The notes below the pieces were generated by a model that was given only the letters and a program-made list of their open reading frames with translations, did no database searches and was not told where the DNA came from. Positions 5,273 through 24,348 of a stretch of 30,610 nt of DNA are shown piece after piece (position 1 is the stretch's first letter; the number at the start of each line of letters is the position of its first letter). Position numbers and translations under genes: made by a program. The stretch lies in NCBI RefSeq assembly GCF_002087085.1, contig NZ_MWQY01000005.1, positions 186,001 through 216,610 on the forward strand. Direction: 5' to 3'.

Positions 5273-5761
5273 ATGAGTATTCGTGAAAAAGCCGCTTTTA
5301 TCGCAGAGAACGCAGCTGTTACCGGGGATGTCACCATGGGAAAGGATGCATCAGTCTGGTACGGAGCATCAGTCCGGGGAGATTATGCTCCTATAGTCAT
5401 TGGGGATTCCTCCAACATACAGGATAATGCCAGTGTTCACGTAGATCATGACGCCCCCGTCAAGATCGGCAAAGGGGTTACCATCGGCCACAACGCTGTT
5501 ATTCACGGCTGCACCGTGGAGGATGACTGTCTTATAGGCATGGGTGCAATCATTCTGAACCGGGCTGTAATCGGTAAGGGTGCCATCATCGGGGCCGGCG
5601 CTCTGGTAACCGAAGGCAAGGTAATACCCCCGGGATCCCTGGCGGTGGGCTCCCCCGCCAAGGTCATGAGAAAGGTCTCCGACGAAGAGTTGAAGCGTGT
5701 TCGTCAGAACGCCTCATCCTATGTTGAGATGGCCCGGAGGCATAACGCGGGAGAGTTCTAG
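5273..5761 (+). CDS. Gamma carbonic anhydrase family protein (YrdA/CaiE-like, hexapeptide-repeat beta-helix)
   Basis: VWYGASVRGD, SNIQDNASVH and TIGHNAVIHGC (three His zinc ligands), IGMGAIIL, GSPAKV. TATAAT at 5255-5260. Confidence 0.9.
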   Translation: MSIREKAAFIAENAAVTGDVTMGKDASVWYGASVRGDYAPIVIGDSSNIQDNASVHVDHDAPVKIGKGVTIGHNAVIHGCTVEDDCLIGMGAIILNRAVIGKGAIIGAGALVTEGKVIPPGSLAVGSPAKVMRKVSDEELKRVRQNASSYVEMARRHNAGEF

Positions 5762-8700
5762 GAACTTCCCGCACTCCTTTTTTCCCAGCGCTCCATGCCC
5801 CTGCGCACTGCATCGATCAGATAGGGCCTCATCTGCGAGGCCTTTACAATATGATCGATGGATCCGACCTCCCGGGCCCGTTCAACGCTGTGTATACCGT
5901 CAAACTCTGCCCCCAGAGCTGTCTGGTATTCGTTATATACCGTCTGATACAGGTTATCAAACTCCTTGTAACCCCATTCACCGGATTTCAAACGTTCCCG
6001 GGCTTCCATGACCCGCGTATCATCTTCGGTGCGCTTTCTGACGGTTTTCGGAAATACCACCGCAGCAGCCGGGGCCCCTCCGATTACCGATGCGAAGGAG
6101 CCTTCAAGAGCTGCGACCTCGAGTTCCGGGTTCAGCCTCTTGGAGAAGACTACATAGGCCCCGCCGTGATAGCGGGCGGTGACCAGAAAAACAAGGGGGC
6201 CTCTGAAGTTTACAACTGCCCTTCCTATCTCAGCTCCATATTCGAGCTGGAGTCTGCGCAGCGATTCCGGTGATCCGTCGAATCCCGAGAGATTCGCAAT
6301 GATGACAGCCGGTACCCTTCCGGAGAAGGCATTCAGCCCCCGGGCCAGCTTTTTTGAAGACTGGGGATAGAGGGTCCCTCCGCTCCAGGTATCCGGACCG
6401 TCGGAAGGCAGGGCACCGATACGGGGAAAGCTGCGGCTTTCGATACCGATCATACCCACAGACAAACCGCCGAGACGGGTCTCCCAGACCAGAGAGGTAT
6501 CCCCGTCTTCGAGCCCTCTCCATCGCTCGAGGATTTCCGCGTCCTGGTCCACAAGGGCACGCATAACCTGGCGCATGTCGAAGGGCTTTTTTCTGTCGGG
6601 ATTCAAATCCATGCTGAAGATATCTCCGATGCTGGTGAATCCCTGACCAAGACTGTCCCGATAGGGCACGGTGGTTACATCCCGCTCATCGGGGTCGGAG
6701 CATTCCACAGGTTCAGGAAAAGAGCTGCCAGGCTTAACATAGCAGGTACGATAATGCTGAAAGAGTACGCCGTAGGCCTCGGCAACGGAAGCGACCCGTA
6801 TCTGGGCCTGGCCGTTGGGGACCATGATTTTCTCTGCACCGCCGATATCCACATTTGTTTCCCCCGACACGCTGCCGGAGAAGTCCAGGGCCCGTTTCCC
6901 GGTAAGAAGCATGGAAGCCTCATCGGTCATGATCAGAAGTCCCCGGGTATGCATCAGCATGGTGGCTTCGGCATTCCAGTAGGACTGGGCGCCCACATTT
7001 ATAGACTGGACGATTATATTTATTTCGCCCCCGGCCTGGGTGAATTCTATTATCCTTTTCAGGGTTGCAGCGGTCCAGTCCAGGTTTTCGGTACCCGAAT
7101 CCATGGTGATTCTGGCTCCGGAGGATACCGGAACCCATTCCACGGGAATTGAATCCTCTTCGGCCATATCGATGGCGCATATAATCCTGCGGCATTCCTC
7201 TTCCGCCAGGCTGCCGAGATCTCCGGTGGGATCCGAGAGAATCAGCATGCGATGAAAAACCGTTCCGCTCACAGGATCGGTATTGCTGATCCTGCCGAAT
7301 ATTATATTGCTGCCGTTGTTTCCGGGTTCACGTCCCTTTACCGAAACAGCCCTGCCGGACCCGTCTGCGGCGACCTCGATATCGAATTCTTCAAACTCAC
7401 CTCGTGGCAAACCCTCATGCAGGGGAAATCCGGCGTGGGTAATCATCTTTATGAGTTCGTAGGGATAAATCTCGTTACGCTGACGCGCCCGGACCACCTT
7501 GAGGGCATAACTGTCCAGGGTCGTCAGGGGCACCGATGAGGGGCGCCGGCTGCGCAGGGTAAACTGGTCCGCCGTAAGATTGTGGAAGATCAGTTCATGT
7601 TCACGGATGGTTTCTTCCCTCCATCGTTTGCGTCGTGAATAGACGACCATCTTTTCCAGGCCAAGACCGATGGTTCTGGGAACCAGGTTGTAACCGAAAT
7701 CCCGGAGCTGCATCAGGCGCAGTCCCAGAAGAGATCTGTTGTAGATGATAATCCGGTTCCACTGAAGCCTGAAACGGTAGTTCTGCTGGGCGGCGCGTAT
7801 GCCGGAAACCGCCTCGTTGAAGACCCGCTCAAATCGAAGCATCCTGGTAAGGTCCTGCCGCGAGGAGAGTTCGGGATCCGTCTCGGAGGTTGAAGCAAGG
7901 GCGAAAAGGCGCATGTCCTTTTCGTTCTCCTTTGCCCGGCCTTCCAGAACAGTGACATTTTCGCTGCGCAGTATCAGTTTGAGATGAAAATTCTTCAGTC
8001 TTTCCACCCGGAGCTCCCGATATTCCAGGGGCGAAAAGGTGAACGCACCGTCGTTGATACTCCATTTTCCGGTATCACCATACTGGTAGGTAGTAAACTG
8101 CGGTTCATCCTGCTCCGGGTAGACTCCCAGAGCGCAGAATTTACAGGGAAAAGGGGCAAGAGAATCGATATAATCCCCGGGGCTGCCCTGCCCCGAAATA
8201 AGTATCGTGACTTCAACTGATTCACAGTCCGGGAAATTCCGGACTATGCCTGGTATTCTCTCAAGAGCCTCGGGAGAAAAGGCAGCAAAAAGAAGTCCGC
8301 CCTTCCGGTCCTTTTCATTCTCCTCATCCTCAGTGAAATCGATCCTGGCCCGGAAAAGATCCTTCCCATCAGAGGATGTCTTGAGAGAATGAATTTTCCT
8401 GTCCCGGTTAAAATACCGGGCCGCCAGCTCCGAGAGAAGTTCCGAACTCCCTGTTCGGGTCGATTTTATTATACGCATCATGTCCGTCATGGCCGAAGGC
8501 GGAAGGTCCATAAAGGACTGCGTACACTCATCGAAACTTCCTGAATTGCCGCTGCAGCTCTCCGAAACCAGGGATTCAACGAATTTGCGCTGTCTTCCCC
8601 GCTGTTCCTGGAGTTGCTGCTGGTCGATCAGAACATAGCGCGCATGCAGGGCGGCGTCCGCCAGTTTGGGAGATCCAAGGTTACTCAGACGTACAATCTC

Positions 8701-11286
8701 GTTCACCAGAAGGGGAAAACCCTCTCCCAGCATTTCTGCTGCGGACCGTTCTTCCAGAAGCTGCAGCAAATCCCGCAGGATCTGACCTTTCAGGGCTGAA
8801 GCCGCATGGGAACGGTAAAAATGGTACAGAAGTCTGTCGATTTCATCACTGACTCCTGCATCGCGATATGCCGCCAGGGCACGGTCTATGGACTGGATAA
8901 ATCCTTGAGGAAGCCCCTTTTCACGGTCTTTCCTGCGCAGAGCATAGTGGGTCAGGAGTTCAGTATAGGTGTGCGGCCTGCTGCCGCTCTCATCTTCAAT
9001 GCTTCGGTTTGAAAAGAGAAGCTCCAGAGCGCAGAATGCCTCCATGCTGCGCAATACCAGCCGGGTAAAAGCATCGGTACGGTCAGGGTTCTGGGTAATA
9101 AAGGCCTCGATCCGGTTAACAAGATCGGAAGAATCCTCCCCTGCATCAAAGCCGAGAAAAATTGCCTGGACTTCATTGGCAATGCGTTCCCAACGCTCCT
9201 GGAGCCCGGGTTCAATATGGGGAAAATCGATTTTAACCGCAGCCGGCTCTTTCGTATCAGTATTGTCCCCGGCCTCCTCCAGCCGGATAAGGGACTGTCC
9301 TGCCGCCACCTGGGTTCCGGGGTTCGCAAGAATCTCAGCGACCTGACCATCCGCAGGCGATTCAATGAGCATCTCCATCTTCATGGCTTCAAGAACCATA
9401 AGGACGCTGCCTTTTCTGACCTCCTCGCCGGCCTTCACGGGAACAGAAAGCACAATAGCCGGGGATGGGGATTTGACGAAGCCCCTGGACTCCTGCTCAA
9501 GAAGAAAGGGTGTTCCGTTGATTTCACACTGAAGGGAATCTCCCCTGGGGACAAGGATAAAGCGGTAACGCTGGCCGTTAAACTCCAGGACGCCCTCATG
9601 GTCAGTGCTGCGATACCTGCATATTACGAAGGCATCGTCCACTATTACGTGAAAGCTGTCTCCGCCTGTATGCAGCACCTTTGCACAATAGGCTGCGCCT
9701 TCAATGGAAAGATTGACCTCCTGCCCGTCCCGGCCCGGAAGGGTTCTCGGTTTTCCCAGACTGGCTAATTCATTGATAAAATTAACCTTCTCTTCCGCTG
9801 AGCGCGACAATGCAATGGTAATCGCCCCGGTCACAAGGGCCGCCCGGAATGTTTCGTCCGGTGCGCGGCGGATTCCCTTTTTGAGGAGCTCTCCCACGTA
9901 GGCGGTGGAAACCCCGCCCGCCTTTACCTCAGGCTGATCCAGAAGCTGCCGCAGGAACGCACGGTTGGTTGTTCCGTTTTCAATGCGGATAGTACACTCG
10001 TCAAGGGCCCTTTTCAGCCGGGAGGCCGCCTCGTCCCGGTCCCGTCCCCGGGCTATGATCTTGGCGACCATGGAATCGAACTCCGGGGGAATCTCCGCAC
10101 CGCTCTCTATTCCCGAATCGACCCTGATGCCGGGACCTGCGGGGGGCCGGAAAAGGTCCACCCGGCCCGGGGCGGGGGAAAATTCCATTCCCGGATCTTC
10201 GGCATTGAGGCGGGCCTCCATTACATGACCCCGGGGTGCCGCGAAACTCACGTCCACTTTTCTCCCGAAGGCCACCTCTATCTGTCCGGTTACAAGATCG
10301 ATCCCGTAGAGTTCTTCCGTAATCGGATGTTCGACCTGAAGCCGGGTATTGACTTCCATAAAATAGAAGCGTCGGGAATCCAGATCGAACAGGTATTCCA
10401 CGGTACCCGCGCCCTCGTAGGAGGCAGCCTTGATGAGCCGTGCCGCGGAGGCCTCCATCTCCTCGATGGTCTCCGGCGGCAGTCCCGCTGGAGGGGTCTC
10501 CTCTATTATCTTCTGGTTCCGGCGCTGCAGGGAACAGTCCCTTACGCCGAAGGTATTTACCGTACCATGACGATCCGCCAGGACCTGAACCTCCAGGTGC
10601 CTTCCCCGCCGGACAAGGTGTTCGATAAAGACAGTCCGGGTACCCGTAACCCGCAGAGTCTCTTCCACGGCGGAGTTATACTGGGATTCCAGCTCCTCGG
10701 GACGCAGAACAAAACGTATTCCCCGTCCGCCTCCGGCATTGGAAGCCTTGACGATAACAGGATACCCGATCTTCTCTGATACTTTTCGGGCTTCTTCGAT
10801 ATTCGATACCGGACCGCGGCTCCAGGGAAGAATGGGAACATCCGCTTTTTCCGCCAGATCCTTCGCCGCTATCTTGTCTCCCAGCAGGGCCATGGCTCTG
10901 CTGTTGGGACCGAGAAAGGTATAACCTTCCTTTTCGACCGCCTCGGCAAAAACCGAGTCCTCCGACACAAAACCCCATCCGACCCACAGGGCGTCGCAGC
11001 CGCCCGCCTTGAGAGCCTCGAGGATAAGGGCATGGTCAAGATAGGGAGAACTTGCCGTACCGGGATACCCCGGAAGGTCTTCGAAACAGACCCGGTAATC
11101 GGCATTCTTGACAAAGGGTGCCTGTTCCTCCCGGGCCGTATAGATAGCCAGAGTCCTGAGTTCTGTTTCAAAACGGGAGTTATATTCACTGACTCCCCGA
11201 ATAAAACGCAAAGCAGCTTCGCCGCGGTTTACGATTCCAATCCGTGAATGTTTGTGTAATACTGGTGTTGCAGTTTGGGGTGCCAA
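5758..11286 (-). CDS. Single-chain multidomain acetyl/acyl-CoA carboxylase (biotin carboxylase + BCCP + central region + carboxyltransferase), 1842 aa
   Basis: BC motifs NRGE, WVGWGF, KASNAGGGRG, RDCSLQRRNQK, EVNTRLQVEH and FDSMVAK. Biotinyl motif EAMKM (Lys636, nt 9379-9381). CT motifs SSGARI, ANLSGFDG and GGAYVV. TTG start 7 nt after a GAGGAGG RBS (11300-11294). Confidence 0.92.
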   Translation of the reverse strand: MAPQTATPVLHKHSRIGIVNRGEAALRFIRGVSEYNSRFETELRTLAIYTAREEQAPFVKNADYRVCFEDLPGYPGTASSPYLDHALILEALKAGGCDALWVGWGFVSEDSVFAEAVEKEGYTFLGPNSRAMALLGDKIAAKDLAEKADVPILPWSRGPVSNIEEARKVSEKIGYPVIVKASNAGGGRGIRFVLRPEELESQYNSAVEETLRVTGTRTVFIEHLVRRGRHLEVQVLADRHGTVNTFGVRDCSLQRRNQKIIEETPPAGLPPETIEEMEASAARLIKAASYEGAGTVEYLFDLDSRRFYFMEVNTRLQVEHPITEELYGIDLVTGQIEVAFGRKVDVSFAAPRGHVMEARLNAEDPGMEFSPAPGRVDLFRPPAGPGIRVDSGIESGAEIPPEFDSMVAKIIARGRDRDEAASRLKRALDECTIRIENGTTNRAFLRQLLDQPEVKAGGVSTAYVGELLKKGIRRAPDETFRAALVTGAITIALSRSAEEKVNFINELASLGKPRTLPGRDGQEVNLSIEGAAYCAKVLHTGGDSFHVIVDDAFVICRYRSTDHEGVLEFNGQRYRFILVPRGDSLQCEINGTPFLLEQESRGFVKSPSPAIVLSVPVKAGEEVRKGSVLMVLEAMKMEMLIESPADGQVAEILANPGTQVAAGQSLIRLEEAGDNTDTKEPAAVKIDFPHIEPGLQERWERIANEVQAIFLGFDAGEDSSDLVNRIEAFITQNPDRTDAFTRLVLRSMEAFCALELLFSNRSIEDESGSRPHTYTELLTHYALRRKDREKGLPQGFIQSIDRALAAYRDAGVSDEIDRLLYHFYRSHAASALKGQILRDLLQLLEERSAAEMLGEGFPLLVNEIVRLSNLGSPKLADAALHARYVLIDQQQLQEQRGRQRKFVESLVSESCSGNSGSFDECTQSFMDLPPSAMTDMMRIIKSTRTGSSELLSELAARYFNRDRKIHSLKTSSDGKDLFRARIDFTEDEENEKDRKGGLLFAAFSPEALERIPGIVRNFPDCESVEVTILISGQGSPGDYIDSLAPFPCKFCALGVYPEQDEPQFTTYQYGDTGKWSINDGAFTFSPLEYRELRVERLKNFHLKLILRSENVTVLEGRAKENEKDMRLFALASTSETDPELSSRQDLTRMLRFERVFNEAVSGIRAAQQNYRFRLQWNRIIIYNRSLLGLRLMQLRDFGYNLVPRTIGLGLEKMVVYSRRKRWREETIREHELIFHNLTADQFTLRSRRPSSVPLTTLDSYALKVVRARQRNEIYPYELIKMITHAGFPLHEGLPRGEFEEFDIEVAADGSGRAVSVKGREPGNNGSNIIFGRISNTDPVSGTVFHRMLILSDPTGDLGSLAEEECRRIICAIDMAEEDSIPVEWVPVSSGARITMDSGTENLDWTAATLKRIIEFTQAGGEINIIVQSINVGAQSYWNAEATMLMHTRGLLIMTDEASMLLTGKRALDFSGSVSGETNVDIGGAEKIMVPNGQAQIRVASVAEAYGVLFQHYRTCYVKPGSSFPEPVECSDPDERDVTTVPYRDSLGQGFTSIGDIFSMDLNPDRKKPFDMRQVMRALVDQDAEILERWRGLEDGDTSLVWETRLGGLSVGMIGIESRSFPRIGALPSDGPDTWSGGTLYPQSSKKLARGLNAFSGRVPAVIIANLSGFDGSPESLRRLQLEYGAEIGRAVVNFRGPLVFLVTARYHGGAYVVFSKRLNPELEVAALEGSFASVIGGAPAAAVVFPKTVRKRTEDDTRVMEARERLKSGEWGYKEFDNLYQTVYNEYQTALGAEFDGIHSVERAREVGSIDHIVKASQMRPYLIDAVRRGMERWEKRSAGSS

Positions 11287-11310: not shown

Positions 11311-11329
11311 TGTCGGCCGGTGGCCGCCT
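11311..11329. promoter_or_regulatory. Putative operator, copy 1 (TGTCGGCC-GGT-GGCCGCCT)
   Basis: Imperfect copy of the 8-3-8 palindrome, 10 nt upstream of the acc RBS. Confidence 0.55.
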
Positions 11330-11350
11330 TAAAGTCAAGGGAGTATACTC

Positions 11351-11380
11351 ATTCTACACCTGCGCGTCGAGGGCCGGCAA
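11351..11380 (-). promoter_or_regulatory. Candidate sigma70 promoter for acc
   Basis: Minus strand TTGCCG (11380-11375), 18 nt, TAGAAT (11356-11351). An alternative -10, TATACT, lies at 11347-11342. Confidence 0.45.
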
Positions 11381-11397: not shown

Positions 11398-11416
11398 TTT
11401 CGGCCGATGGCTGATA
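11398..11416. promoter_or_regulatory. Putative operator, copy 2 (TTTCGGCC-GAT-GGCTGATA)
   Basis: Imperfect copy of the 8-3-8 palindrome in the middle of the divergent acc/fabH spacer. Confidence 0.55.
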
Positions 11417-11502: not shown

Positions 11503-11521
11503 AGTCGGCCAATGACCGATA
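11503..11521. promoter_or_regulatory. Putative operator, copy 3 (AGTCGGCC-AAT-GACCGATA)
   Basis: Near-palindromic copy ending 2 nt before the fabH RBS AGGAGG (11524-11529). Confidence 0.6.
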
Positions 11522-11533
11522 TCAGGAGGATTG

Positions 11534-12511
11534 ATGAACGCGACCATCCGGTCGGCAGGTGCATACCTGCCGCCTAAACGAGTAAGCAACCAGGATCTGG
11601 CACAGATTATAGACACCTCCGATGAATGGATACGCAGTCATACCGGAATCGGTTCCCGTCATCTGGCAGAGAGTGAGACAACTTCCGAAATGGCAACAGA
11701 GGCGGCCCGGGAGGCTCTTTCCAGATGCGGTATTTCTGCAGAGGAACTGGATATGATAATAGTGGCCACCAGCACACCGGATTACATCGGATTCCCCGCC
11801 ACGGCCAGTATTGTACAGAATAACATCGGTGCCCTGCGCAGCGGGGCCTTCGACCTTGCTGCAGCGTGTACGGGTTTTGTCTATGCCATGGAGTGCGGCA
11901 GAGGGCTCATTTCTTCCGGTGTGGCCCGAAACGTTCTTGTCATCGGCGCTGAAAAACTATCCAGTCTGGTAAACTGGAAGGACCGCTCAACCTGCGTTCT
12001 GTTCGGAGACGGAGCCGGTGCGGTAGTGCTGAGCGCCTGTGACGACGACAGGGGATTCCTGGCATCCCGTATGCGTTCCGACGGAAGCGGAGCCGACGCC
12101 CTTATCGTACGGGCGGGGGGGATAAAAAATCCCATACGAGGTCAGAATATTCCGGAGGAGGATCTCTATATCGCCATGGACGGACGCAGGGTTTACAACT
12201 TTGCCGTTCAGGTCAATACGGAGCTCTTTGAGGTCCTCCCCGCCGAGGCGGGAATCTCCATTGACGAGATAAAATACATAGTCCCCCATCAGGCCAACGT
12301 ACGAATTATCAAGGCCGCAGCAAAGCGAGCCGGGATTCCCATGGAAAAGTTTTACCTTAACATAGAGGAATACGCAAACACCTCGGCCGCTTCCATTCCT
12401 ATTGCGCTCAACGATTTATGGAAGGATGGGAGACTGAATCCCGGGGATGTCATCATGACTCTGGGCTTCGGCTCCGGTCTCACCTACGGCGGCCAGCTGA
12501 TTCGGCTGTAA
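11534..12511 (+). CDS. fabH: Beta-ketoacyl-ACP synthase III
   Basis: DTSDEWI..TGI, catalytic triad AACTGF / PHQAN / YANTS, LFGDGAGA, GFGSGLT. AGGAGG RBS. Confidence 0.95.
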   Translation: MNATIRSAGAYLPPKRVSNQDLAQIIDTSDEWIRSHTGIGSRHLAESETTSEMATEAAREALSRCGISAEELDMIIVATSTPDYIGFPATASIVQNNIGALRSGAFDLAAACTGFVYAMECGRGLISSGVARNVLVIGAEKLSSLVNWKDRSTCVLFGDGAGAVVLSACDDDRGFLASRMRSDGSGADALIVRAGGIKNPIRGQNIPEEDLYIAMDGRRVYNFAVQVNTELFEVLPAEAGISIDEIKYIVPHQANVRIIKAAAKRAGIPMEKFYLNIEEYANTSAASIPIALNDLWKDGRLNPGDVIMTLGFGSGLTYGGQLIRL

Positions 12512-12529: not shown

Positions 12530-12548
12530 TGTCGGTCCTTGACCGACA
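12530..12548. promoter_or_regulatory. Putative operator, copy 4 (perfect palindrome TGTCGGTC-CTT-GACCGACA)
   Basis: Perfect 8-3-8 inverted repeat in the fabH-fabD spacer, overlapping TTGACC (12539-12544). Confidence 0.65.
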
Positions 12549-12568
12549 AAATCAGTGCGTGGTAAGGT
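12539..12568 (+). promoter_or_regulatory. Internal promoter for fabD and downstream fab genes
   Basis: TTGACC, 18 nt, TAAGGT (12563-12568) with an extended TGg, then 8 nt to the ATG at 12577. No SD. Confidence 0.5.
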
Positions 12569-12576
12569 CTCACACA

Positions 12577-13542: not shown

Positions 13543-14283
13543 ATGTTACTGGAAGGAAAAAAAGCCCTGGTCACCGGCGGGGCCCAGGGAATAGGAAAAG
13601 AGATTGTCATGAAGTTTCTGGCCGAAGGAGCATCGGTACACTACTGCGACCTTGCGGAAGGTCCGTTCAAGGCGGAAATGGATGCAGCAGCCAAAGGCGA
13701 TGCAACGGTTACATTTCACAAGGCCAATATTACCGATGAGAACGAGGTCAAGGCCCTGATAAAGGAGATTACCGCCGACGGCAAGCTCGATATACTCGTC
13801 AATAATGCCGGAATTACCCGGGACGGAATGGTATTCCGCATGTCCCTTGACCAGTGGGAGTCTGTACTCAAGGTAAACCTTACCGGTGCCTTTCTGGTAG
13901 CCAGAGAAGTATCCGCCTTTATGGCCATGAAGCAGAAATCCGGCAGCATTATCAATATGGCTTCGGTGGTCGGCCAGATGGGCAATGCCGGGCAGACCAA
14001 CTACTCCGCTTCCAAGGCAGGGCTGATCGGTTTTACCAAGAGCCTGGCAAAAGAGACGGCAAAACGGAATGTCCGGGTCAATGCCGTAGCCCCGGGCTTT
14101 ATTGAAACAGCCATGACCGACAAGCTGACCGAGGATGTCAAGGCAGACTATGCCCGGGCTATTCCCCTGGGAAGAATGGGAAGCCCCGAAGACATCGCCA
14201 ACACCGTTCTCTACCTGGCCAGTGACCTGTCGTCCTATATAACCGGCCAGGTTATCAGGGTCGACGGCGGCCTTGTAATGTAG
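13543..14283 (+). CDS. fabG: 3-oxoacyl-ACP reductase
   Basis: TGGAQGIG, NNAGITRD, GNAGQTNYSASKAG, APGFIET, ITGQVIRVDGG. AGGAGG RBS. Confidence 0.95.
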   Translation: MLLEGKKALVTGGAQGIGKEIVMKFLAEGASVHYCDLAEGPFKAEMDAAAKGDATVTFHKANITDENEVKALIKEITADGKLDILVNNAGITRDGMVFRMSLDQWESVLKVNLTGAFLVAREVSAFMAMKQKSGSIINMASVVGQMGNAGQTNYSASKAGLIGFTKSLAKETAKRNVRVNAVAPGFIETAMTDKLTEDVKADYARAIPLGRMGSPEDIANTVLYLASDLSSYITGQVIRVDGGLVM

Positions 14284-15987: not shown

Positions 15988-17153
15988 TAATTACCCCCAA
16001 AATTCGCAACAATATCTGCATGAATGCCCATCCGGTGGGCTGCGAACGGGAGACCCTGAACCAGATCGAATATGTCAGGAATAAAGGGAAATTCGCAGGG
16101 CCAAAGACTGCTCTTGTTGTGGGCTCCTCGACGGGCTACGGTCTGGCCTCAAGAATTTCCCTGGCCTTTGGCGCCGGTGCAGACACCATCGGCGTCTTTT
16201 TCGAAAAAGAGGGCAGCGACAAACGTCCCGGAACTCCCGGTTACTACAACAACAGGGCCCTCGAGAAGGCCGCCCGGGAAGCAGGGCTCAAGGCGGACAG
16301 CGTAAACGGCGACGCCTTTTCCCACGGGGTAAAAAAACAGGTTATCGATCTTATTAAAGAAAAATACGGAAGCATTGACCTGGTGATCTACAGCCTCGCC
16401 TCCCCCGTGAGGGTGGATCCTGATACGGGCGAGATGTATCGGTCCGTGCTGAAACCCCTCAAGGGGACATATACAGCCAAATCCGTCAATGCCATGACTG
16501 GTGAGGTAAGCGAAGCCTCCATCGAACCTGCCAATCAGGAGGAACTTGAGGCTACCGTAAAGGTGATGGGAGGAGAAGACTGGCAGCTCTGGATACGGGC
16601 ACTCAAGGATGCCGGTGTTCTCTCCGAAGGTGCCATGAGCGTAGCCTACTCCTATATCGGTCCTGAGGTCACCTATGCCGTATACCGGGAGGGAACCATC
16701 GGCAAGGCAAAGGAGCACCTGGAAAGGAGCGCATCGGAAATCAGTAAAATTCTTGATCCGCTGAAAGGGAAAGCCTTCGTTTCCGTGAACAAGGCCCTGG
16801 TTACCCGGGCAAGCGCAGTCATCCCCGTGGTCCCCCTCTACATGTCCATCCTCTACAAGGTCATGAAAAACAAGGGGATTCACGAAGGATGCATTGAACA
16901 GATGTACCGTCTGTTTACACAGCGGCTCTATACACAGGGGGAAATCCCCGTGGACGATGAGGGCCGTATCCGGGTAGACGACTGGGAGATGCGACCGGAT
17001 GTACAGGAGGAGATCACGAAACTCTGGGAACAGGTCGATTCCGGCAACATCGAAGAGATCGGCGACATGGACGGTTACAGGGAAGATTTTCTGCGCCTGA
17101 ACGGTTTCAACGTACCCGGTGTCGACTATGATGCCGAAGTAAACGATTTTTGA
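15984..17153 (+). CDS. fabV: Enoyl-ACP reductase FabV / trans-2-enoyl-CoA reductase family
   Basis: MIITPKIR..IC.NAHPVGC, GSSTGYGLASRI, NGDAFS, YSLASP, VMGGEDW, YSYIGP, Y..GTIGKAK, KALVTRAS..IP. ATGA overlap with fabZ. Confidence 0.93.
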   Translation: MIITPKIRNNICMNAHPVGCERETLNQIEYVRNKGKFAGPKTALVVGSSTGYGLASRISLAFGAGADTIGVFFEKEGSDKRPGTPGYYNNRALEKAAREAGLKADSVNGDAFSHGVKKQVIDLIKEKYGSIDLVIYSLASPVRVDPDTGEMYRSVLKPLKGTYTAKSVNAMTGEVSEASIEPANQEELEATVKVMGGEDWQLWIRALKDAGVLSEGAMSVAYSYIGPEVTYAVYREGTIGKAKEHLERSASEISKILDPLKGKAFVSVNKALVTRASAVIPVVPLYMSILYKVMKNKGIHEGCIEQMYRLFTQRLYTQGEIPVDDEGRIRVDDWEMRPDVQEEITKLWEQVDSGNIEEIGDMDGYREDFLRLNGFNVPGVDYDAEVNDF

Positions 17154-17169
17154 CACTTCTGTAATCAGC

Positions 17170-17197
17170 AAGCCCGGTTTTATGCCGGGCTTTATTA
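17170..17197. terminator. Intrinsic terminator between convergent fabV and the queuosine-precursor transporter
   Basis: AAGCCCGG-ttttatg-CCGGGCTT hairpin followed by TATTA (T-rich tail on the + strand). Confidence 0.7.
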
Positions 17198-17204
17198 TAG
17201 GTGC

Positions 17205-17906
17205 CTAGAGATATCTCTCCCGAATCCGTTTTGCCCAGTATATAAAGGGTGTATCCGCTACCGCCACCAGCCACTTGAAAAGATACGTGGTAATAAGAAT
17301 GTCGATGAGAACACGTACCTCGTAGATACCCCAGAAAGCGATCAGGACAAAAATAACTGAGTCTATTAACTGACTCACCATGGTACTCAGATTGTTGCGG
17401 ATCCAGATATGCCTGTCTTCGGGAAATCGGCTGCGCCAGAAACTGTAGGCCCATACATCGTGGCGCTGAGAAAGAATATATGCCACGAGACTGGCTCCCG
17501 CCACCCGGGGCATAACGAGAAATATCGTTGCCAGCGCTCCCTGGGCAAAATCGGAGGGTGCCGGTATGAACCAGAGGGCGATATTCATGAAAAGGGTCAT
17601 AACAAGAACAGCGAAGAACCCTACCCACACAGCCTTTTTTGCCTCCTCTTTTCCATGATTCTCCGAAAGAATATCGGTAACCAGAAAGGATGTGGCATAG
17701 ACAATATTGCCCAGGGTTGCCGCAAGGCCAAAGATATGTACGGTTTTGAGGACCTGTATGTTCGCAATAATTACAGAGATCGGAATCCAGACAAAAAGTC
17801 CGGTTTTTCCCATTATGCGATATAATGCGATGATCGTAAAAAAATTGATAAACAGAAACGCCACCCACAGGGCTTCGTTCTGAAAAGGAAAAACCAGGTC
17901 TGCCAT
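17205..17906 (-). CDS. yhhQ: Queuosine precursor transporter (YhhQ/VUT, DUF165 family)
   Basis: IANIQVLK, GNIVYATSFLVTDILSE.HG..EA, SQRHDV and WIRNNLSTMVSQLIDSVIF are family hallmarks. GGAGG RBS. Confidence 0.88.
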   Translation of the reverse strand: MADLVFPFQNEALWVAFLFINFFTIIALYRIMGKTGLFVWIPISVIIANIQVLKTVHIFGLAATLGNIVYATSFLVTDILSENHGKEEAKKAVWVGFFAVLVMTLFMNIALWFIPAPSDFAQGALATIFLVMPRVAGASLVAYILSQRHDVWAYSFWRSRFPEDRHIWIRNNLSTMVSQLIDSVIFVLIAFWGIYEVRVLIDILITTYLFKWLVAVADTPFIYWAKRIRERYL

Positions 17907-17920
17907 CTGCCCTCCGTAAA

Positions 17921-17964
17921 ATCGGATAGTTTAGCAAACTACCGGATGGGTAAGTTTTTTTCAA
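17921..17964 (-). promoter_or_regulatory. Promoter of the queuosine-precursor transporter, with an inverted repeat over the -10 element
   Basis: Minus strand TTGAAA, 17 nt, TAGTTT. Inverted repeat ATCCGGTAGTTT-gct-AAACTATCCGAT (17947-17921), 10 of 12 positions matching. Confidence 0.5.
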
Positions 17965-17991
17965 GTACCCCGAAACAGGAACCGCGATATA

Positions 17992-19341
17992 TCAGCGGGA
18001 AGACTCTCGGGAAATCCGTATGGGCAGAGCTTCGATGAGTCCCGGCAGATAATCCTGTTCTTCTGCAAGTTTCTGAAAGAGCTTTTTGATAGTGCGCTCA
18101 TGGGCCTGGCTGATGGTGAGACCACCGTCCTTCATATCCGCGCTCTGGTAGGTATGCAGTATCTGCCCCTGATACTCAACCTGGATTATCAGCCGCGCCT
18201 GGGAGATCTCCAGAGTGTTGTCCCGGTATCGGGGAAAATCCTCCAGTAGCAGTTTGCAGCGAAGGGTATATTCGGTATCGCTTTGTTCATCCGCCAGGGA
18301 AAAGGGCAGTCCTGATGTAAAAAAGAGTGCGGAAGCCATCTCAGGTATTCCCCTTGCAGTAATATCAGCATCATACTCCATTACAAAACGGAGAGGCAGA
18401 GGCAGAACATGAACCGCTATCTCCGTCTGTACGGAGGGGAGATTCAGGTAATAATCGCTTCGATCTATCCCCAGGGCTTCAAGCTGAAGATCAACTGATA
18501 TACTCCCGCGTCCCAGGGGTATCCTGGATAAATCAATCTGAAATTCATACAGCCCCTCCTCGCGGGTAGTACCGCTTTTCAGGACTTCGTCACCCAGGCT
18601 GACAAGCAGGGGAATACTTCCGGAGGGAATATCCCCCTGGACTCTGGCAGCGGCTTCCGCTGTCTCCCCGGCACGTCCCGCGAGGCTGTCGGGCTGAACG
18701 GTAATACTGAGAAGACTGAGAATATTCGCCGTCTTTCTTTCAATCAGGTCCAGAAGATTTCCCCGGGTGTCGCCAAGTTCTCCTGCCAGGCCTGCGAAAT
18801 ACGGTGAATCCAGGAGCAATTCGTGGCCCTTCTGAAGCAGTGAGAGGGCTTCGGACGCAGTGAGGTCCTCTTCGGTATAAACGGGAACGAGCAGCTCTTC
18901 GATTCTTCGGGCCAGCTCCTTCTTTTGCTTCTCCAGTTGATCCCTGGAAATCCTCATATAGATCCAGTAGCCCTGCCGGAGGGAATAGTAACTGTCCACA
19001 ACCTCGGCCCCCTCAAGGGTCTGATAAACCCTCTCTTCGATTCTGCGTTTGAAGGACTGAAAATGATCCCCCTCCGCGGATTCGGATATCTCGGTTGCAG
19101 TTTCTGCGATTATTGAGGTTGAAATGGAAGCGGCCAGATTGCTCAGGGCGTCCTGACGGGCCTTCGCCGCAGCTACCGACTGGACGGGATCATCGGATGA
19201 GCCGATACCTATATAGTATTTATCTTCCGAGGGGTGACGCTCAATCCATTTCGGCTGTTCCGGAGCGCTGAGACAGGAGAACATAATGAACAGCACTGAA
19301 GTATACACGCATGCCCTGAAGATTGATTTTTTTCCCGTCAT
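17992..19341 (-). CDS. Lipoprotein with N-terminal LPP20-like domain, 449 aa
   Basis: Signal peptide ending MFS-C, then PKWI...YYIGIGSS...AAAKARQDALSNLA. The C-terminal region is beta-rich and unassigned. Confidence 0.7.
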   Translation of the reverse strand: MTGKKSIFRACVYTSVLFIMFSCLSAPEQPKWIERHPSEDKYYIGIGSSDDPVQSVAAAKARQDALSNLAASISTSIIAETATEISESAEGDHFQSFKRRIEERVYQTLEGAEVVDSYYSLRQGYWIYMRISRDQLEKQKKELARRIEELLVPVYTEEDLTASEALSLLQKGHELLLDSPYFAGLAGELGDTRGNLLDLIERKTANILSLLSITVQPDSLAGRAGETAEAAARVQGDIPSGSIPLLVSLGDEVLKSGTTREEGLYEFQIDLSRIPLGRGSISVDLQLEALGIDRSDYYLNLPSVQTEIAVHVLPLPLRFVMEYDADITARGIPEMASALFFTSGLPFSLADEQSDTEYTLRCKLLLEDFPRYRDNTLEISQARLIIQVEYQGQILHTYQSADMKDGGLTISQAHERTIKKLFQKLAEEQDYLPGLIEALPIRISRESSR

Positions 19342-19371
19342 TCCATACCTCTGAGTTTTTGGACCATCGAT

Positions 19372-20298
19372 TTATCTCCGCGGCAGCACAGCAAGGGAAT
19401 AAAAATAGGAACCCTCCGGACTCCGCCAGCGGGATACAATCCGGAAACCTTTTACTGTGGCACTTGAATACTGATATACATCCTCCTGAAAGGATGAACC
19501 CCTGCCTTCCGTTGATCTCACATCATAGCTGGCTTCAACTCCTGCTGCCAGCTGCAGCAGTATTTCAGCCAGGGCCGCCTTGTCGGCTTCAGCGATGGAA
19601 TCGGCAAAACGAAGCCTGGGACGGGATATGCCGAGCCCCAGGTAATACCCTTCAATCTCCGGTACCCGGCCGATCCACCCGGGTTCGCTGATACCCGACA
19701 GTATATCTATGTCCGGATATTCTTCAGGGGATGCGACAGCGGTCAGGGACGGAAATCGCACCAGCGCGTAGCTCCCGGTTTCGTCCTGATGCAGTGTGCG
19801 TACTTCAGCCTCCTCCACAAAGAGCGGGACGAGATCCTGATTGTAATACAATCGAAGGTCCTCCGCGTATCCTGTACCTTCGCGAAAAGTTCCCCGAAAG
19901 GATGAGACCTGAGCGGCGATACCCGCATACCGTGCGGCCTGATCAGCGGCATTTCTGATACACTGCCTGAGTTCCTCTGTGCGGGAAACCCTGGGGAAGG
20001 ATGTACCCAGAAACAGAGGCCTCTCCCTGGCATTTTCCGGAAGCCATACCCACCAGGGTAAGCGGACAGGCAGCCAGGAGGGTCCAGGCTCAGGAGGCGG
20101 CACAACCTCCTCGGCACGGGGCAGATCAAGATCCCCGGTGATCGGCATACGCAGATCCTGCCAGGTTGAATATGCCCTGCCCGTCTCCATGGCGGGATCA
20201 GCCGGCACATCCGCAGACTCCGGGGTACTGGTACAGGAAGCAAGGGACAGCATAACTGGAAGAAAAAAAAGCAGCCGGAACAGACTATTACCTGCCAT
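19372..20298 (-). CDS. Lipoprotein with LPP20-like domain(s), 308 aa
   Basis: Lipobox LAS-C. Two similar units: PWW...LFLGTS...NAADQAA and PGWI...YYLGLG...ADKAALAEI...YFYSLA. Confidence 0.65.
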   Translation of the reverse strand: MAGNSLFRLLFFLPVMLSLASCTSTPESADVPADPAMETGRAYSTWQDLRMPITGDLDLPRAEEVVPPPEPGPSWLPVRLPWWVWLPENARERPLFLGTSFPRVSRTEELRQCIRNAADQAARYAGIAAQVSSFRGTFREGTGYAEDLRLYYNQDLVPLFVEEAEVRTLHQDETGSYALVRFPSLTAVASPEEYPDIDILSGISEPGWIGRVPEIEGYYLGLGISRPRLRFADSIAEADKAALAEILLQLAAGVEASYDVRSTEGRGSSFQEDVYQYSSATVKGFRIVSRWRSPEGSYFYSLAVLPRR

Positions 20299-20314
20299 GC
20301 CTCTATTCTATTCT

Positions 20315-20353
20315 AAAAAAAGACGGTACGAAACTGATCGCACCGTCTTTTTT
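20315..20353 (-). terminator. Strong intrinsic terminator after the first lipoprotein gene
   Basis: Minus strand A6-GACGGTGCGA-tcagtt-TCGTACCGTC-T7 (10-bp stem with one G-U pair). Confidence 0.8.
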
Positions 20354-20381
20354 GGTAAATAATTATAAGCTTATCGAGCTG

Positions 20382-20921
20382 TTATTTTGCCAGTTCAGCG
20401 TCGAGCCACTTCATTGCTTCGTCGGCTTTAAACTCCGCGAATGCGGCATCTTCGTTCCGTACAAAGAGCTCCTTTTCAGCAGCCTCCCGGAGGGCGCTTT
20501 TTTCGTACATAACCATAACATATACCGTACCGTCATCGTCCCGGTAGGTCTCGACAACCTTGGAACCGTTAAGGGTGGCGGAAGCGACCTGTTTCGTCAC
20601 GGTTTCCAGGAATTCGATGACCTGACGGTTACCGTCAACCCCGGCTTCCTGAGCATACTGCTTGACGGCACTGTCAACCTGGACCTCTACCTGGGCGGCA
20701 ATTTCAGCCCGGGCGTTGGCTGTAGCCGCGGTGCGTGCGGTGGATAGATTTGCCGATTTGTAGTTTCCGACTCCATAGTAGGCATCGTCCGCTACGGGAG
20801 GTGCAAGAACCCAGTCAGGAAGATCACTGGAGGGGGCAGCAGCCGGTTCCGGTGCGGAAGAACAGGAAATTACCAGTCCGATCAGGGACAGAGATACCAG
20901 TATCAAAAATACTCTTTTCAT
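20382..20921 (-). CDS. LPP20 family lipoprotein, 179 aa
   Basis: MKRVFLILVSLSLIGLVIS-C lipoprotein signal, PDWV...YYGVG...ARTAATANARAEIA...LNGSKVVETY...GTVYVMV. AAGGAG RBS 6 nt before the ATG at 20921. Confidence 0.82.
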   Translation of the reverse strand: MKRVFLILVSLSLIGLVISCSSAPEPAAAPSSDLPDWVLAPPVADDAYYGVGNYKSANLSTARTAATANARAEIAAQVEVQVDSAVKQYAQEAGVDGNRQVIEFLETVTKQVASATLNGSKVVETYRDDDGTVYVMVMYEKSALREAAEKELFVRNEDAAFAEFKADEAMKWLDAELAK

Positions 20922-21001
20922 TTTTTTCTCCTTTGCCAAAGAAAGCCTTTGAAGTATAGCCTACTCCTTTCCATGGTCCTTTTCAAGTTTTCTTTGCTAA
21001 A

Positions 21002-21283: not shown

Positions 21284-21344
21284 CTCCTCACCCGGTGATT
21301 GAAGAGGAACGATGGCACCTCTACTTGAACAATCCCGCGATTCA

Positions 21345-21374
21345 TGTTAACCGTAATGAATCTTATGGTTAACG
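21345..21374. promoter_or_regulatory. BirA operator (bioO-like)
   Basis: TGTTAACC-N14-GGTTAACG matches the established BirA box TGTtAAC-N14-16-GTTaACA and lies at the head of the birA-bioY operon. Confidence 0.8.
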
Positions 21375-22315
21375 AGAACTCCGTATCGCGAAGCACCTTG
21401 CTCAATCACCTCCGTAAAAACAGTGATCCCCTTTCGGGAACGGATCTGGGCGGAATTCTTGGCATATCCCGGGTTGCGGTACGAAAACATATACTCAGGC
21501 TGGCAAAGGAAGGTTTTGTTATCGAGTCAGGCAGGAAGGGATATCGTCTGCTGTCCGAGCCCGAATTCCCCTCTCCTTCGGAATACGACTCCGGCACAAT
21601 CCATATACAGAACGAGGTTGAATCCACCATGGAAGAGGCCTCACGAAACTCTCTCCGTAATTGTGAAGATATACAGTTTTACCTCGCCCGCAGGCAGAAA
21701 GCAGGCCGGGGAAGAAACAGAAAATCCTGGGTTTCCCCTGACGGCGGCCTGTATCTGACTGCTGCCTTTCGTCCCCGGCTTCCGGCAGCTTATATCTCCC
21801 TCTACATAATAGAAACCGGCCTGGCCCTGGTCGATTCCTTACGGGAACACTATGGCGTGGATTGCCGGTTCCGCTGGCCCAACGATCTATTCGTGAACGA
21901 AAAGAAGCTTGGAGGACTGCTGCTTGAAGTATCCGGTCCGGCGGAATCCCCTGATCATGCTTTTCTCGGTTTAGGCCTGAACGTACTTTCCTCGGTCCAT
22001 TTTTCGGAAACGGGCGATCGCCGGGTCACCTGCCTTCAGAACGAGATTCCCGGCGGCGGCCGGGACCTCCCGGATTTAAAAACACTGTTCGAAACCTTGA
22101 AACCGGTTATAGAGTCTTCCCTCGGAATGATCGAAGCGGACAAGGTCCGGAAGCACTGGAGGGCCAGGACCTCTACTCAGGGAAAGGTTATGAGGATTGA
22201 TGATACCGATTATACCGTCCGGAATCTCGCCCTTAACGGGTCCCTGATTGTCGCTGACAAGGACGGGACATTGTACGAAATCGCACCGGGTCCGCGAATA
22301 ATGGGGCCCAGGTGA
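21365..22315 (+). CDS. birA: Bifunctional biotin--[acetyl-CoA carboxylase] ligase / biotin operon repressor
   Basis: N-terminal wHTH (SGTDLGGILGISRVAVRKHI..L...G..I....GY), ESTM, QKAGRGR..KSWVSP, RWPND, KKLGGLL, GLGLNV. The start is uncertain: in-frame ATGs at 21344, 21356 and 21365. Confidence 0.9.
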   Translation: MVNENSVSRSTLLNHLRKNSDPLSGTDLGGILGISRVAVRKHILRLAKEGFVIESGRKGYRLLSEPEFPSPSEYDSGTIHIQNEVESTMEEASRNSLRNCEDIQFYLARRQKAGRGRNRKSWVSPDGGLYLTAAFRPRLPAAYISLYIIETGLALVDSLREHYGVDCRFRWPNDLFVNEKKLGGLLLEVSGPAESPDHAFLGLGLNVLSSVHFSETGDRRVTCLQNEIPGGGRDLPDLKTLFETLKPVIESSLGMIEADKVRKHWRARTSTQGKVMRIDDTDYTVRNLALNGSLIVADKDGTLYEIAPGPRIMGPR

Positions 22316-22340
22316 CAACAGACTTTCATCGGGAGTACGG

Positions 22341-22886
22341 ATGAATCAGAAACAGCTTTCCATGGCCATTCACTCAGCAGTATTTTCCTCTCTTATTATT
22401 CTGGGGACCTTCATCCGGATACCCCTTGGACCGGTTCCCATTGTTCTGGCTAATTTCTTTGTTATTCTCTCCGGACTTTTTCTCGGTCCCCTCTGGGGCA
22501 GCCTTTCTGTACTGATCTATCTTCTTCTCGGCGCCCTCGGTCTTCCCGTTTTCAGCGCCGGCGGCGGATTCGCTGTCTTTTTGGGCCCAACTGGAGGGTA
22601 TCTTCTGGGGTATCCCGCGGGTTCCTTCCTGGCAGGACTTATCAGCCGGATAAATCCGAAAAGACTCACCGTTCTGCTGCTCTCCGCCGGTCTCGGAACG
22701 GCTGTCATCTACCTGCTTGGAGTCCCGTGGCTCATATGGAGGATTTCCGCCGCCACGGGAGAGGGTGTTTCTCTTGCCAGGGGGCTACTGATCGGTATGG
22801 TTCCCTTTATACCCGGGGATGTACTCAAAATCACTGCCGCCGCCATTGTCGCCCGTTCCCTGAACAGACTTGTCAGTCACCAATGA
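22341..22886 (+). CDS. bioY: Biotin ECF transporter S component
   Basis: IPLGPVPIVL, YLLLGALGLPVFS, GPTGGYLLGY, PFIPGDVLK. GGGAG RBS. Confidence 0.93.
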   Translation: MNQKQLSMAIHSAVFSSLIILGTFIRIPLGPVPIVLANFFVILSGLFLGPLWGSLSVLIYLLLGALGLPVFSAGGGFAVFLGPTGGYLLGYPAGSFLAGLISRINPKRLTVLLLSAGLGTAVIYLLGVPWLIWRISAATGEGVSLARGLLIGMVPFIPGDVLKITAAAIVARSLNRLVSHQ

Positions 22887-23635
22887 ATGAACCTGTTCTG
22901 AGCTTCCAGGATGTGGGATACCGTTTTTCCGACGGGTTCTGGGGTCTGAAACATGTTAATCTTGAACTCTTTGCCGGAGAACTCCTGCTTCTGGCGGGAT
23001 CCAACGGGGCGGGTAAAACCCTCCTCATGCGTCATGCCAACGGTCTGGCCAGGCCGACGGAAGGAAGAGTCCTGTATCGGGGGGAGGAAGTACACAAGGC
23101 AGGCAGGAAGATCAGACAGAGAATAGGCCTGGTTTTCCAGCATCCCGAGGAACAGATAATAGAAGAAAGCGTGGCCGCGGAGATTGCCTTTGGTCCCGGG
23201 AACCTGGGAATCCGGGGGGAACGACTGAAAAGCCTGGTTGAATCCAACCTGGAGCTTTTCGGACTCGCCCCGTATGCGGAACGACATCCAATGACCCTCT
23301 CCGGTGGAGAACGCCGGCGCCTGGCCCTCGCCTCGGTACTGGCCATGGAACCGGATATCCTGCTTCTGGATGAACCCTTTATGGAGCTCGATTATCCCGG
23401 GGTCCGTTCGCTGCTCTCTGTGCTGCTGAAACTCCATGCCGCCGGGCAGGGAATCTGCGTAATCACCCACGATGTGGGGAAAATCCTGGCCCACTGTGAC
23501 CGACTGGCCCTTATGAAGGACGGAACACTCAGCGCAGCGGGAAAACCGGAAGATCTGGTGGGACAGCTGGAGGAACACGGAGTGCGGAATCCCTGCCGGG
23601 GTGGAATGCTCCTGGAGCATGCGTCGTGGAGATGA
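22883..23635 (+). CDS. ECF transporter ATPase (BioM/EcfA-like)
   Basis: Walker A GSNGAGKT, GLVFQHPEEQ, EIAFGPGNLG, LSGGE, LLLDEP, ITHD. ATGA overlap with bioY. Confidence 0.9.
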   Translation: MNEPVLSFQDVGYRFSDGFWGLKHVNLELFAGELLLLAGSNGAGKTLLMRHANGLARPTEGRVLYRGEEVHKAGRKIRQRIGLVFQHPEEQIIEESVAAEIAFGPGNLGIRGERLKSLVESNLELFGLAPYAERHPMTLSGGERRRLALASVLAMEPDILLLDEPFMELDYPGVRSLLSVLLKLHAAGQGICVITHDVGKILAHCDRLALMKDGTLSAAGKPEDLVGQLEEHGVRNPCRGGMLLEHASWR

Positions 23636-24348
23636 GTTTTCCCCTTACCCCGGGGAAGTCACTGCTTCACCGTTACGACCCGCGGCTCAAGCTTGTCGTG
23701 CTGCTTGCCGCAGCAATGGGGGTACATCGGGCATCCGTGGCGGAACTTTCCGTTATGGCCCTGGGGCTGAGCATCGCACTTCCGGTTTTCCTTTCCCCCC
23801 GGCGTATTGCCCTGAGACAGATATGCTCCGCCTTTCGATTTGCCCTGGTACTCCTGATTCTGTCCATCGCAGCGGCGGGGGCATCTTCCTTTTCCATACT
23901 TCTCGCGTTTTCCACGCGCCTGTATACCTGGGTTGTTCTGGGCTTTCTTTACATCGGGACCACCAGTGTTTCTCAAATCCGCGGAACCTTCTACGCCCTC
24001 AGCCGATGGATCCCCGGTTTTCCGGCAGCCTCGTTTGCCCTTATGATATCCATAACCTTGAGTTTTCTGCCCCGTTTTGACCGTGCCCTGACAAGCGGGC
24101 GGGAAGCCCTGGCATCAAGGGGGGGCGTTCCATGGTACCGGCCTGTAAGGAAAATAAAGGCTATAAGTATCCCTCTGCTTCTGCGTACTGTCAGACAGTC
24201 AGTTCAGTTAAGCGAGGCCCTGTATGCAAGGGGATTCCACGAAAACCGGTCATTTCCCCTTGGAAAAATACCCCGGCTGCAATTGCTTGTCACCGCCGCA
24301 ATTATCGCGACACACCTCTGGTTTACGGTTTTTTTTCGTATACCTTGA
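23632..24348 (+). CDS. ECF transporter T component (BioN/EcfT/CbiQ-like)
   Basis: SLLHRYDPRLKL, hydrophobic helices and two X-R-G motifs (ASRG, ARG). ATGA overlap with the ATPase gene. Confidence 0.85.
   Translation: MSFPLTPGKSLLHRYDPRLKLVVLLAAAMGVHRASVAELSVMALGLSIALPVFLSPRRIALRQICSAFRFALVLLILSIAAAGASSFSILLAFSTRLYTWVVLGFLYIGTTSVSQIRGTFYALSRWIPGFPAASFALMISITLSFLPRFDRALTSGREALASRGGVPWYRPVRKIKAISIPLLLRTVRQSVQLSEALYARGFHENRSFPLGKIPRLQLLVTAAIIATHLWFTVFFRIP

Follow-up and report, generated by a model that had tools for sequence, protein, structure and literature searches.

Here, we describe the organization and predicted control of a fatty-acid synthesis locus of a spirochaete, located in a stretch of 30.6 kb (hereafter the window) of a 4.2-Mb assembly of 79 contigs that is 97% complete. 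In this locus the gene for a single-chain acetyl-coenzyme A carboxylase (acc; ACC for the protein, CoA for coenzyme A) is placed head-to-head with fabH-D-G-F-Z-V, the genes of a type II fatty-acid synthase (FAS-II). We consider it likely that this enzyme would be the cell's only source of malonyl-CoA for the dissociated FAS-II, and that acc and the fab genes would be controlled together via a 15-bp palindromic operator, TCGGCC-N3-GGCCGA, with a TetR-family protein as the likely binder. A lipogenic single-chain ACC that appears to be co-regulated with FAS-II is well supported by the gene content of the genome and by the conservation of the operator.

Organization of the acc-fab locus

The window was compared with three sets of sequences: 301 genomes of the class Spirochaetia; six further genomes from the GTDB family of the host, five of the same genus and one of a sister genus that is only 81% complete (L011, L091-L095); and 35 acc loci of other families, of which 31 are informative, whereas for the remaining four under 1 kb of sequence is available upstream. 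Among named organisms, Marispirochaeta sp. gives the best matches to ACC residues 680-1842 (83% identity over the searched region), with a syntenic locus in a metagenome-assembled genome (L011). The genes of the divergent cluster are the following:

5758-11286, minus strand: acc, single-chain acetyl-CoA carboxylase of 1842 aa (Pfam, translation, invariant columns)
11531-12511, plus strand: fabH, 3-ketoacyl-acyl carrier protein synthase III (KAS III); NF006829, 404 bits, cut-off 249
12577-13533, plus strand: fabD, malonyl-CoA:acyl carrier protein transacylase; TIGR00128, 266.8 bits, cut-off 260.9
13543-14283, plus strand: fabG; TIGR01830, 309.8 bits, cut-off 297.75
14314-15561, plus strand: fabF; TIGR03150, 602.4 bits, cut-off 493.75
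15565-15987, plus strand: fabZ; NF000582, 127.8 bits, cut-off 113
15984-17153, plus strand: fabV, enoyl-acyl carrier protein reductase; NF010177, 610 bits, cut-off 403

All six FAS-II enzymes exceed their NCBIfam cut-offs. The acyl carrier protein (ACP) is encoded outside the cluster by acpP, after rpmF on contig C16 (103.8 bits, cut-off 70.45). With separate FabH, FabD, FabG, FabF, FabZ, enoyl reductase and ACP, the synthase is of the dissociated type II. The acc gene starts with TTG at 11286, with GGAGG located 7 nt upstream; fabH starts with TTG at 11531 or, likely, with ATG at 11535, and the ATG of fabD at 12577 was read from the sequence. Depending on the fabH start chosen, the acc-fabH spacer measures 244-248 bp, which includes the 247 bp given in the initial annotation of this DNA. 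The gene content and layout proposed there are borne out by the listing of open reading frames (ORFs), Pfam and NCBIfam.

The divergent acc/fabHDGFZV layout is conserved in 6/6 relatives of the host family (tblastn with the window proteins). The linkage is thus not unique to this genome, a concern raised in the initial annotation, and it is confined to one GTDB family, so that the window adds a lineage-specific acc-fab divergon. In one locus of another family (L115), fabV is found at the ACC tail.

A single-chain carboxylase of a known family

The ACC polypeptide carries Biotin_carb_N, CPSase_L_D2 and Biotin_carb_C (residues 14-464), a biotinyl domain (605-669) and Carboxyl_trans (1349-1824), with a weak ACC_central match (821-915) in the full-length scan. 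The domain order in the single chain, biotin carboxylase (BC), biotin carboxyl carrier protein (BCCP), central domain and carboxyltransferase (CT), is that of the single-chain family. The lysine predicted to be biotinylated, Lys636, lies in the motif EAMKMEM (residues 633-639) and is invariant across the 14 homologues of alignment A1. The central region was analyzed separately:

7252-9249, minus strand: ACC central (non-catalytic) domain, residues ~680-1345 (PF08326, AlphaFold2 model, Foldseek)

When residues 680-1345 are scanned alone, PF08326 is matched with 25.6 bits (cut-off 23.2), and the same family is matched in the central domain of 24 of 40 aligned homologues. The AlphaFold2 model of this domain, built on 40 sequences, reaches a predicted local distance difference test score of 85.3 and a predicted template modeling score of 0.80. 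In a Foldseek search against the PDB the 31 best matches to this model are all yeast, human or Chaetomium ACC, with expect values (E) down to 1.2e-22; the next match is unrelated (E 7e-4). The central region is thus predicted to fold like the central domain of eukaryotic ACC. By sequence, no solved structure of a bacterial member of the single-chain family was found.

Representative genomes were also scanned with the 14-homologue alignment A1; the matches listed are mostly from actinobacteria and include few spirochaete loci. At least about 65 actinobacterial loci match the protein from residues 6/14 to ~1833 with 38-48% identity (tblastn translations), and those listed include Saccharopolyspora, Amycolatopsis, Nocardia and Micromonospora. 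Such end-to-end identity, together with the predicted eukaryotic-like central fold, places the protein in the family of SACE_4237: the 1842-aa protein is an ACC of the eukaryote/actinobacterial single-chain type. The idea that the window holds an undescribed system has to be given up for the enzyme, as it aligns over its full length with a family that has already been characterized. In the report by Livieri et al. (2019; PMC6491548), SACE_4237 is described as the essential supplier of malonyl-CoA for fatty-acid synthesis, with activity on both acetyl- and propionyl-CoA and with a contribution to polyketide synthesis. We infer acetyl-CoA as the substrate of the spirochaete enzyme, and a dimeric state.

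The carboxylase as probable lipogenic ACC and its distribution in Spirochaetia

In the host genome acc is the single match to PF01039 and also the single match to Biotin_carb_C, and accA (PF03255) gave no match in this 97%-complete assembly. The biotinyl/lipoyl matches examined include OadA, which is accompanied by OadB, and the lipoyl arm of a FabH fusion protein described below; OadA is the only other biotin enzyme among them. The complete FAS-II therefore has no other visible source of malonyl-CoA. With no second carboxyltransferase or biotin carboxylase detected, the single-chain protein is very probably the lipogenic ACC. Both the proposal that the multidomain carboxylase feeds the dissociated FAS-II and the search for a second ACC that might supply malonyl-CoA instead thus turn out in favor of the initial annotation. 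The OadA protein (carboxyltransferase and biotinyl domain) and OadB are encoded on contig C65 (locus L006) as a sodium-pumping oxaloacetate decarboxylase.

At the level of the class, a 503-aa CT query detects the single-chain ACC in 63 of 301 genomes and 33 of 135 genera. A strong accA match (E at or below 1e-55) is present in 113 of 301 genomes, and only four genomes have both enzymes (cross-tabulated by hand from two tables), leaving 59 of the 63 single-chain carriers without accA. The mutual exclusion with accABCD that the initial annotation proposed to survey is thus nearly complete. A fabF gene is present in 259/301 genomes, including 62/63 single-chain carriers; the sole carrier in which none was found is a 390-contig assembly. 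Since related genomes are not independent, these counts are to be read as patterns and not as statistics. The host is indeed a spirochaete, as suspected, and in view of the frequency of fabF in the class a fatty-acid synthesis locus is no surprise there. In about 88 genomes with fabF, neither the single-chain enzyme nor a strong accA match was detected. The PF03255 matches of these genomes are all weak and fall in frames of 520-560 aa that resemble the beta subunit of propionyl-CoA carboxylase, hinting at a third form of ACC in the class.

A 2011 survey of biotin carboxylases (PMC3199775) covered three spirochaete genomes and reports a four-subunit ACC in none of them. The single-chain enzyme fills this gap for about one-fifth of the sampled Spirochaetia. 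The 'actinobacterial' multidomain ACC family is hereby extended to a second phylum, and the spirochaete clade might be informative about the actinobacterial origin that has been proposed for eukaryotic ACC; neither a new kind of enzyme nor a new pathway is revealed.

A conserved palindrome as probable operator

A repeated palindrome common to acc and the fab spacer, noted before, is real. The sequence TCGGCCnnnGGCCGA occurs three times in the acc-fabH spacer, with one mismatch each (at 11313, 11400 and 11505), and no further one-mismatch copy was found in the 30.6-kb window. The elements of the spacer and of the fabH-fabD gap are the following, the operator copies being given without strand:

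11351-11380, minus strand: promoter-like site for acc, TTGCCG-18-TAGAAT (consensus scan, putative function)
11313-11327: operator O1, TCGGCCGGTGGCCGC, flanked by the promoter-like site and the ribosome-binding site of acc
11400-11414: operator copy O2, TCGGCCGATGGCTGA, mid-spacer
11505-11519: operator copy O3, TCGGCCAATGACCGA, immediately before the ribosome-binding site of fabH
12532-12546: operator copy O4, TCGGTCCTTGACCGA, in the fabH-fabD gap, with two mismatches and itself a perfect palindrome

When the spacers of all seven genomes of the family are aligned, O1 is kept in 6/6 relatives and the -10 region of the acc promoter-like site in all seven genomes. O2 is kept only in the two closest relatives. 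O3 is retained in L091 and L092, and L094 has instead a copy next to a conserved TTGAC box. O4 is kept in all seven genomes as TCGGYYCTTGACCGA. A conserved TAAGGT follows O4 (12547-12579), 8 nt before the fabD ATG, and could be the -10 box of an internal promoter, with a nearly leaderless fabD transcript, or a ribosome-binding site. The window holds six sites with at most two mismatches (2.96 expected), a number reached in 8 of 100 shuffles and not significant alone. The case for the palindrome rests on clustering and conservation, not on this count.

Across the host genome the operator is found at 18 sites with at most one mismatch (14.1 expected) and at three perfect sites (0.40 expected). 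Half of the 18 sites (9/18) are non-coding, compared with 14 of the 179 sites with exactly two mismatches; the latter are at about background level and were set aside. Eight of the nine non-coding sites flank lipid genes or a TetR gene, the remaining one being located at a contig end. Besides the three spacer copies, these sites lie directly upstream of a second fabF (fabF2; 559.9 bits, cut-off 493.75), a FabK-like gene of the NMO family (152 bits, short of the FabK cut-off of 453), an acyl-CoA-ligase-like gene encoding 634 aa, a fusion gene and the TetR gene. Perfect sites precede fabF2 and the FabK-like gene, which form an apparent operon with a gene for a GntR-FCD regulator (L131:1295-2029) on contig C1 (L131:1295-4900). 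The fusion (contig C34, L134:1693-5070, minus strand; 1125 aa) joins E1alpha and E1beta (transketolase-like), a lipoyl arm and a FabH-type KAS III, has no E2 core, and is present as a frame of 1123-1151 aa in 5/5 relatives.

In five relatives, sites with at most one mismatch are found upstream of the orthologues of the TetR gene (5/5), the ligase-like gene (5/5), the fusion (5/5), fabF2 (4/4) and the FabK-like gene (2/4). Both half-sites are invariant, the three bases between them differing from site to site. A second GTDB family has no linkage of acc and fab; there, an O1-type site lies upstream of acc in 3/5 loci and a perfect site upstream of fabD-fabG-fabF in 3/3 genomes. No copy was found near acpP or in the birA upstream region. 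From this placement and this conservation across genes and two families, we read the palindrome as the putative operator of a fatty-acid regulon.

A candidate regulator

According to the mechanism that we propose, acc and the fab genes would be controlled together via the four operator copies at the locus (in the acc leader, mid-spacer, before fabH and before fabD), and the regulon would also take in fabF2, the FabK-like reductase, the ligase-like gene, the E1alpha-E1beta-lipoyl-FabH fusion and the TetR gene. Repression is suggested by the location of the operators, which coincide with promoter-like sites or follow them. The repressor would be the TetR-family protein, a presumably autoregulated protein of 203 aa with a TetR_N domain, whose gene is located on contig C17 (L133:3933-4544) and carries the operator upstream in the host and in 5/5 relatives. 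In the second family a TetR orthologue (42-47% identity) is present in 4/4 genomes, two of which have an upstream site, and a search of one control genome without an acc site gave no orthologue with E up to 1e-10. We regard the TetR protein as the most likely binder of the operator, although our confidence in this assignment is only somewhat better than even. Its score against the profile of Bacillus-type FadR is 41.8 bits (cut-off 200) and against that of FasR 37.9 bits (cut-off 330); it is not a member of either equivalog and, by analogy, may work like them. A ligand such as acyl-CoA, acyl-ACP or malonyl-CoA is likewise a guess by analogy with other lipid regulators, to which the protein would probably respond.

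The chances seem evenly balanced that the protein would be an undescribed master regulator of lipid synthesis in free-living Spirochaetia, one that unites ACC, FAS-II, FabF2/FabK-like, the ligase-like protein and the primer-forming fusion via a single 15-bp operator, whether the genes are linked or not.

Neighboring genes

The window contains two further gene sets with a conceivable relation to the carboxylase, which consumes bicarbonate and needs biotinylation:

5273-5761, plus strand: gamma-carbonic anhydrase (gamma-CA)-family protein of 162 aa, a left-handed beta-helix (LbH), convergent on the acc stop
21344-24348, plus strand: birA (helix-turn-helix and biotin ligase), bioY, an energy-coupling factor (ECF) ATPase and a CbiQ-type ECF T component (Pfam, NCBIfam), a separate transcription unit
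21345-21374, no strand: BirA-box-like inverted repeat TGTTAACC-N14-GGTTAACG, overlapping the birA start codons

The gamma-CA-family gene converges on the ACC stop and is therefore not co-transcribed with acc. Its product scores 184.9 bits against NF050158 (cut-off 250), and its best PDB matches are gamma-CAs and LbH proteins (E ~1e-45). The gene is adjacent to acc in 5/5 relatives of the same genus. The birA gene begins at 21344, 4.19 kb beyond the end of fabV (17153), in agreement with the distance of about 4 kb noted initially, and the biotin operon is in the same position in L091-L093, the three relatives whose compared stretch reached that far. BirA combines an N-terminal HTH_11 with BPL_LplA_LipB (TIGR00121, 102.4 bits, cut-off 83.1). 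The inverted repeat is kept in L091 and L092, and we take it to resemble a BirA box; on this assumed consensus the gene would have a palindromic bio operator in addition to the two domains, as a bifunctional BirA does.

Between fabV and birA an ORF of 285 aa without assigned function and three consecutive genes for LPP20-family lipoproteins occupy the minus strand (17107-20939); these are syntenic in the relatives of the same genus. Downstream, an ORF of 717 aa without Pfam or NCBIfam match (24132-26285, plus strand) overlaps the end of the ECF T gene and is followed by a gene for a 1437-aa Lhr-type helicase (26225-30538, plus strand).

Alternative explanations

Several observations weigh against the explanation that we favor. 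Linkage of acc and fab was found in 0/31 informative loci of other families, so that synteny gives only shallow support. Four of the 63 genomes with the single-chain ACC also have accA. A search for plsX (PF02504) gave no match in the assembly (97% complete), and acpP directly follows rpmF without it, so that no complete route from acyl-ACP to phospholipid can be traced. By analogy with the activity of SACE_4237 on propionyl-CoA (PMC6491548), the spirochaete ACC may not be confined to acetyl-CoA. In the case of the operator, the total site counts are not above chance and the argument thus depends on location and conservation; O2 fits the pattern of a hairpin plus T-run terminator on the plus strand; a site before the TetR gene could not be detected in 2/4 genomes of the second family; the TetR protein stays far below the FadR and FasR cut-offs; and the GntR-FCD gene after the FabK-like gene could encode the binder instead. 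On the side of the enzyme, the carboxylase could mainly serve another pathway (propionyl-CoA carboxylation, polyketide extenders or reverse decarboxylation) and be adjacent to fab incidentally, as the dual activity of SACE_4237 and its feeding of polyketide synthesis (same source), and the separation of acc from fab in other spirochaete families, might indicate. Yet acc encodes the sole carboxyltransferase of a genome whose FAS-II is complete, nearly all carriers (62/63) have fabF, and acc and fab share the operator in two families, which makes such a role improbable. A related question is whether the gamma-CA-family gene and birA-bioY-ECF form a single functional supply unit together with acc and fab, which we doubt. 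The needs of the enzyme, the constant position of both gene sets in the host genus and the presence of only two biotin enzymes among the matches examined speak for it. Against it, the convergent gamma-CA gene carries no operator copy, is below its NCBIfam cut-off and is not beside acc in the sister genus or in any of the 35 loci of other families (0/35), and the biotin operon stands behind four unrelated minus-strand genes with its own BirA-type box and no fatty-acid operator. The two sets may well be sensible companions of a biotin enzyme, but the evidence does not make one co-regulated module of them. From the initial annotation, the co-regulation of acc and FAS-II is hence retained on account of the common conserved operator, and so is the presence of a gamma-CA-family gene at the acc tail in the host genus and of biotin genes nearby; the inclusion of bicarbonate and biotin supply in the module is not, given the convergence of the former and its absence from that position in the sister genus and the 35 loci, and the separate box of the latter and its synteny only in close relatives.

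Rather than a protein operator, the palindrome itself could be a dispersed repeat or could act in the RNA, as a hairpin of a leader or terminator. A 6-bp stem with a 3-nt loop can form, O2 with its T-run scores as terminator-like and several copies are located in 5' leaders. However, it is the half-site sequence itself, not mere pairing, that is kept across unrelated genes and two families, copies stand beside promoter-like boxes and the adjoining genes are functionally coherent, and we give this possibility very little credence. If the palindrome is a protein operator, it may be bound by the GntR-FCD (FadR-like) regulator or another factor in place of the TetR protein. The gene for GntR-FCD directly follows two perfect sites in an apparent operon, its product has weak similarity to FadR, and half of the TetR genes of the second family (2/4) are without site. 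In contrast, no GntR-FCD orthologue was found in the sister-genus genome (81% complete), which keeps the acc, TetR, ligase-like and fusion sites, whereas the TetR gene has its own site in 5/5 relatives and orthologues in 4/4 genomes of the second family. Binding by another factor is therefore rather unlikely, and the TetR protein is preferred.

In four sediment metatranscriptome runs from three studies a small share of sequence words (0.05-0.09) was matched, with DNA carry-over possible. The corresponding contigs of 150-290 nt, with 97-100% identity to acc, fabD and fabG, are informative on neither the start, the strand nor the level of transcripts and were not used as expression evidence.

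Comparison with known systems

The literature searched, which did not take in subscription journals, yielded no paper that describes a multidomain ACC of spirochaetes or the TCGGCC-N3-GGCCGA operator, and no account of the alternation between ACC and accABCD, the acc-fab divergon, the operator with its TetR candidate or the occurrence in a second phylum. The conserved operator provides a concrete and testable lipid-synthesis regulon in a phylum with few known regulators.

The closest known system is SACE_4237 of Saccharopolyspora erythraea with its actinobacterial orthologues, the 'homodimeric multidomain ACC'. Both are single chains of ~200 kDa with the order BC-BCCP-central-CT, share 38-48% identity from end to end and co-exist with a dissociated FAS-II, for which the spirochaete enzyme would likewise supply malonyl-CoA. 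In contrast, the spirochaete ACC comes from Spirochaetota, and its gene is divergently linked to fabHDGFZV with a common operator, whereas no fab operon was seen next to acc among the actinobacterial loci compared. Similar to the eukaryotic cytosolic ACC (yeast 5CSK/5CSL, human ACC1 6G2D/8XL0), the protein has the same domain order and the same predicted central fold (Foldseek E ~1e-22); it is, however, ~400-500 residues shorter, its central domain is only 13-15% identical, and regulation by phosphorylation and citrate-induced filaments is not expected. With the four-subunit bacterial ACC (AccA, AccB, AccC, AccD) it shares the chemistry and the position in front of FAS-II, but that form was not found in the host genome and is nearly mutually exclusive with the single chain in the class.

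Fatty-acid genes are controlled in other bacteria by acyl-thioester-responsive regulators such as FabR and DesT (both of the TetR family), FapR, FabT, FasR and Bacillus-type FadR. The predicted spirochaete system resembles these by a short palindromic operator before acc and fab and by a TetR candidate with a site before its own gene, and differs from them in that the candidate falls below the FadR and FasR equivalog cut-offs and in an operator sequence not found described in the literature searched.

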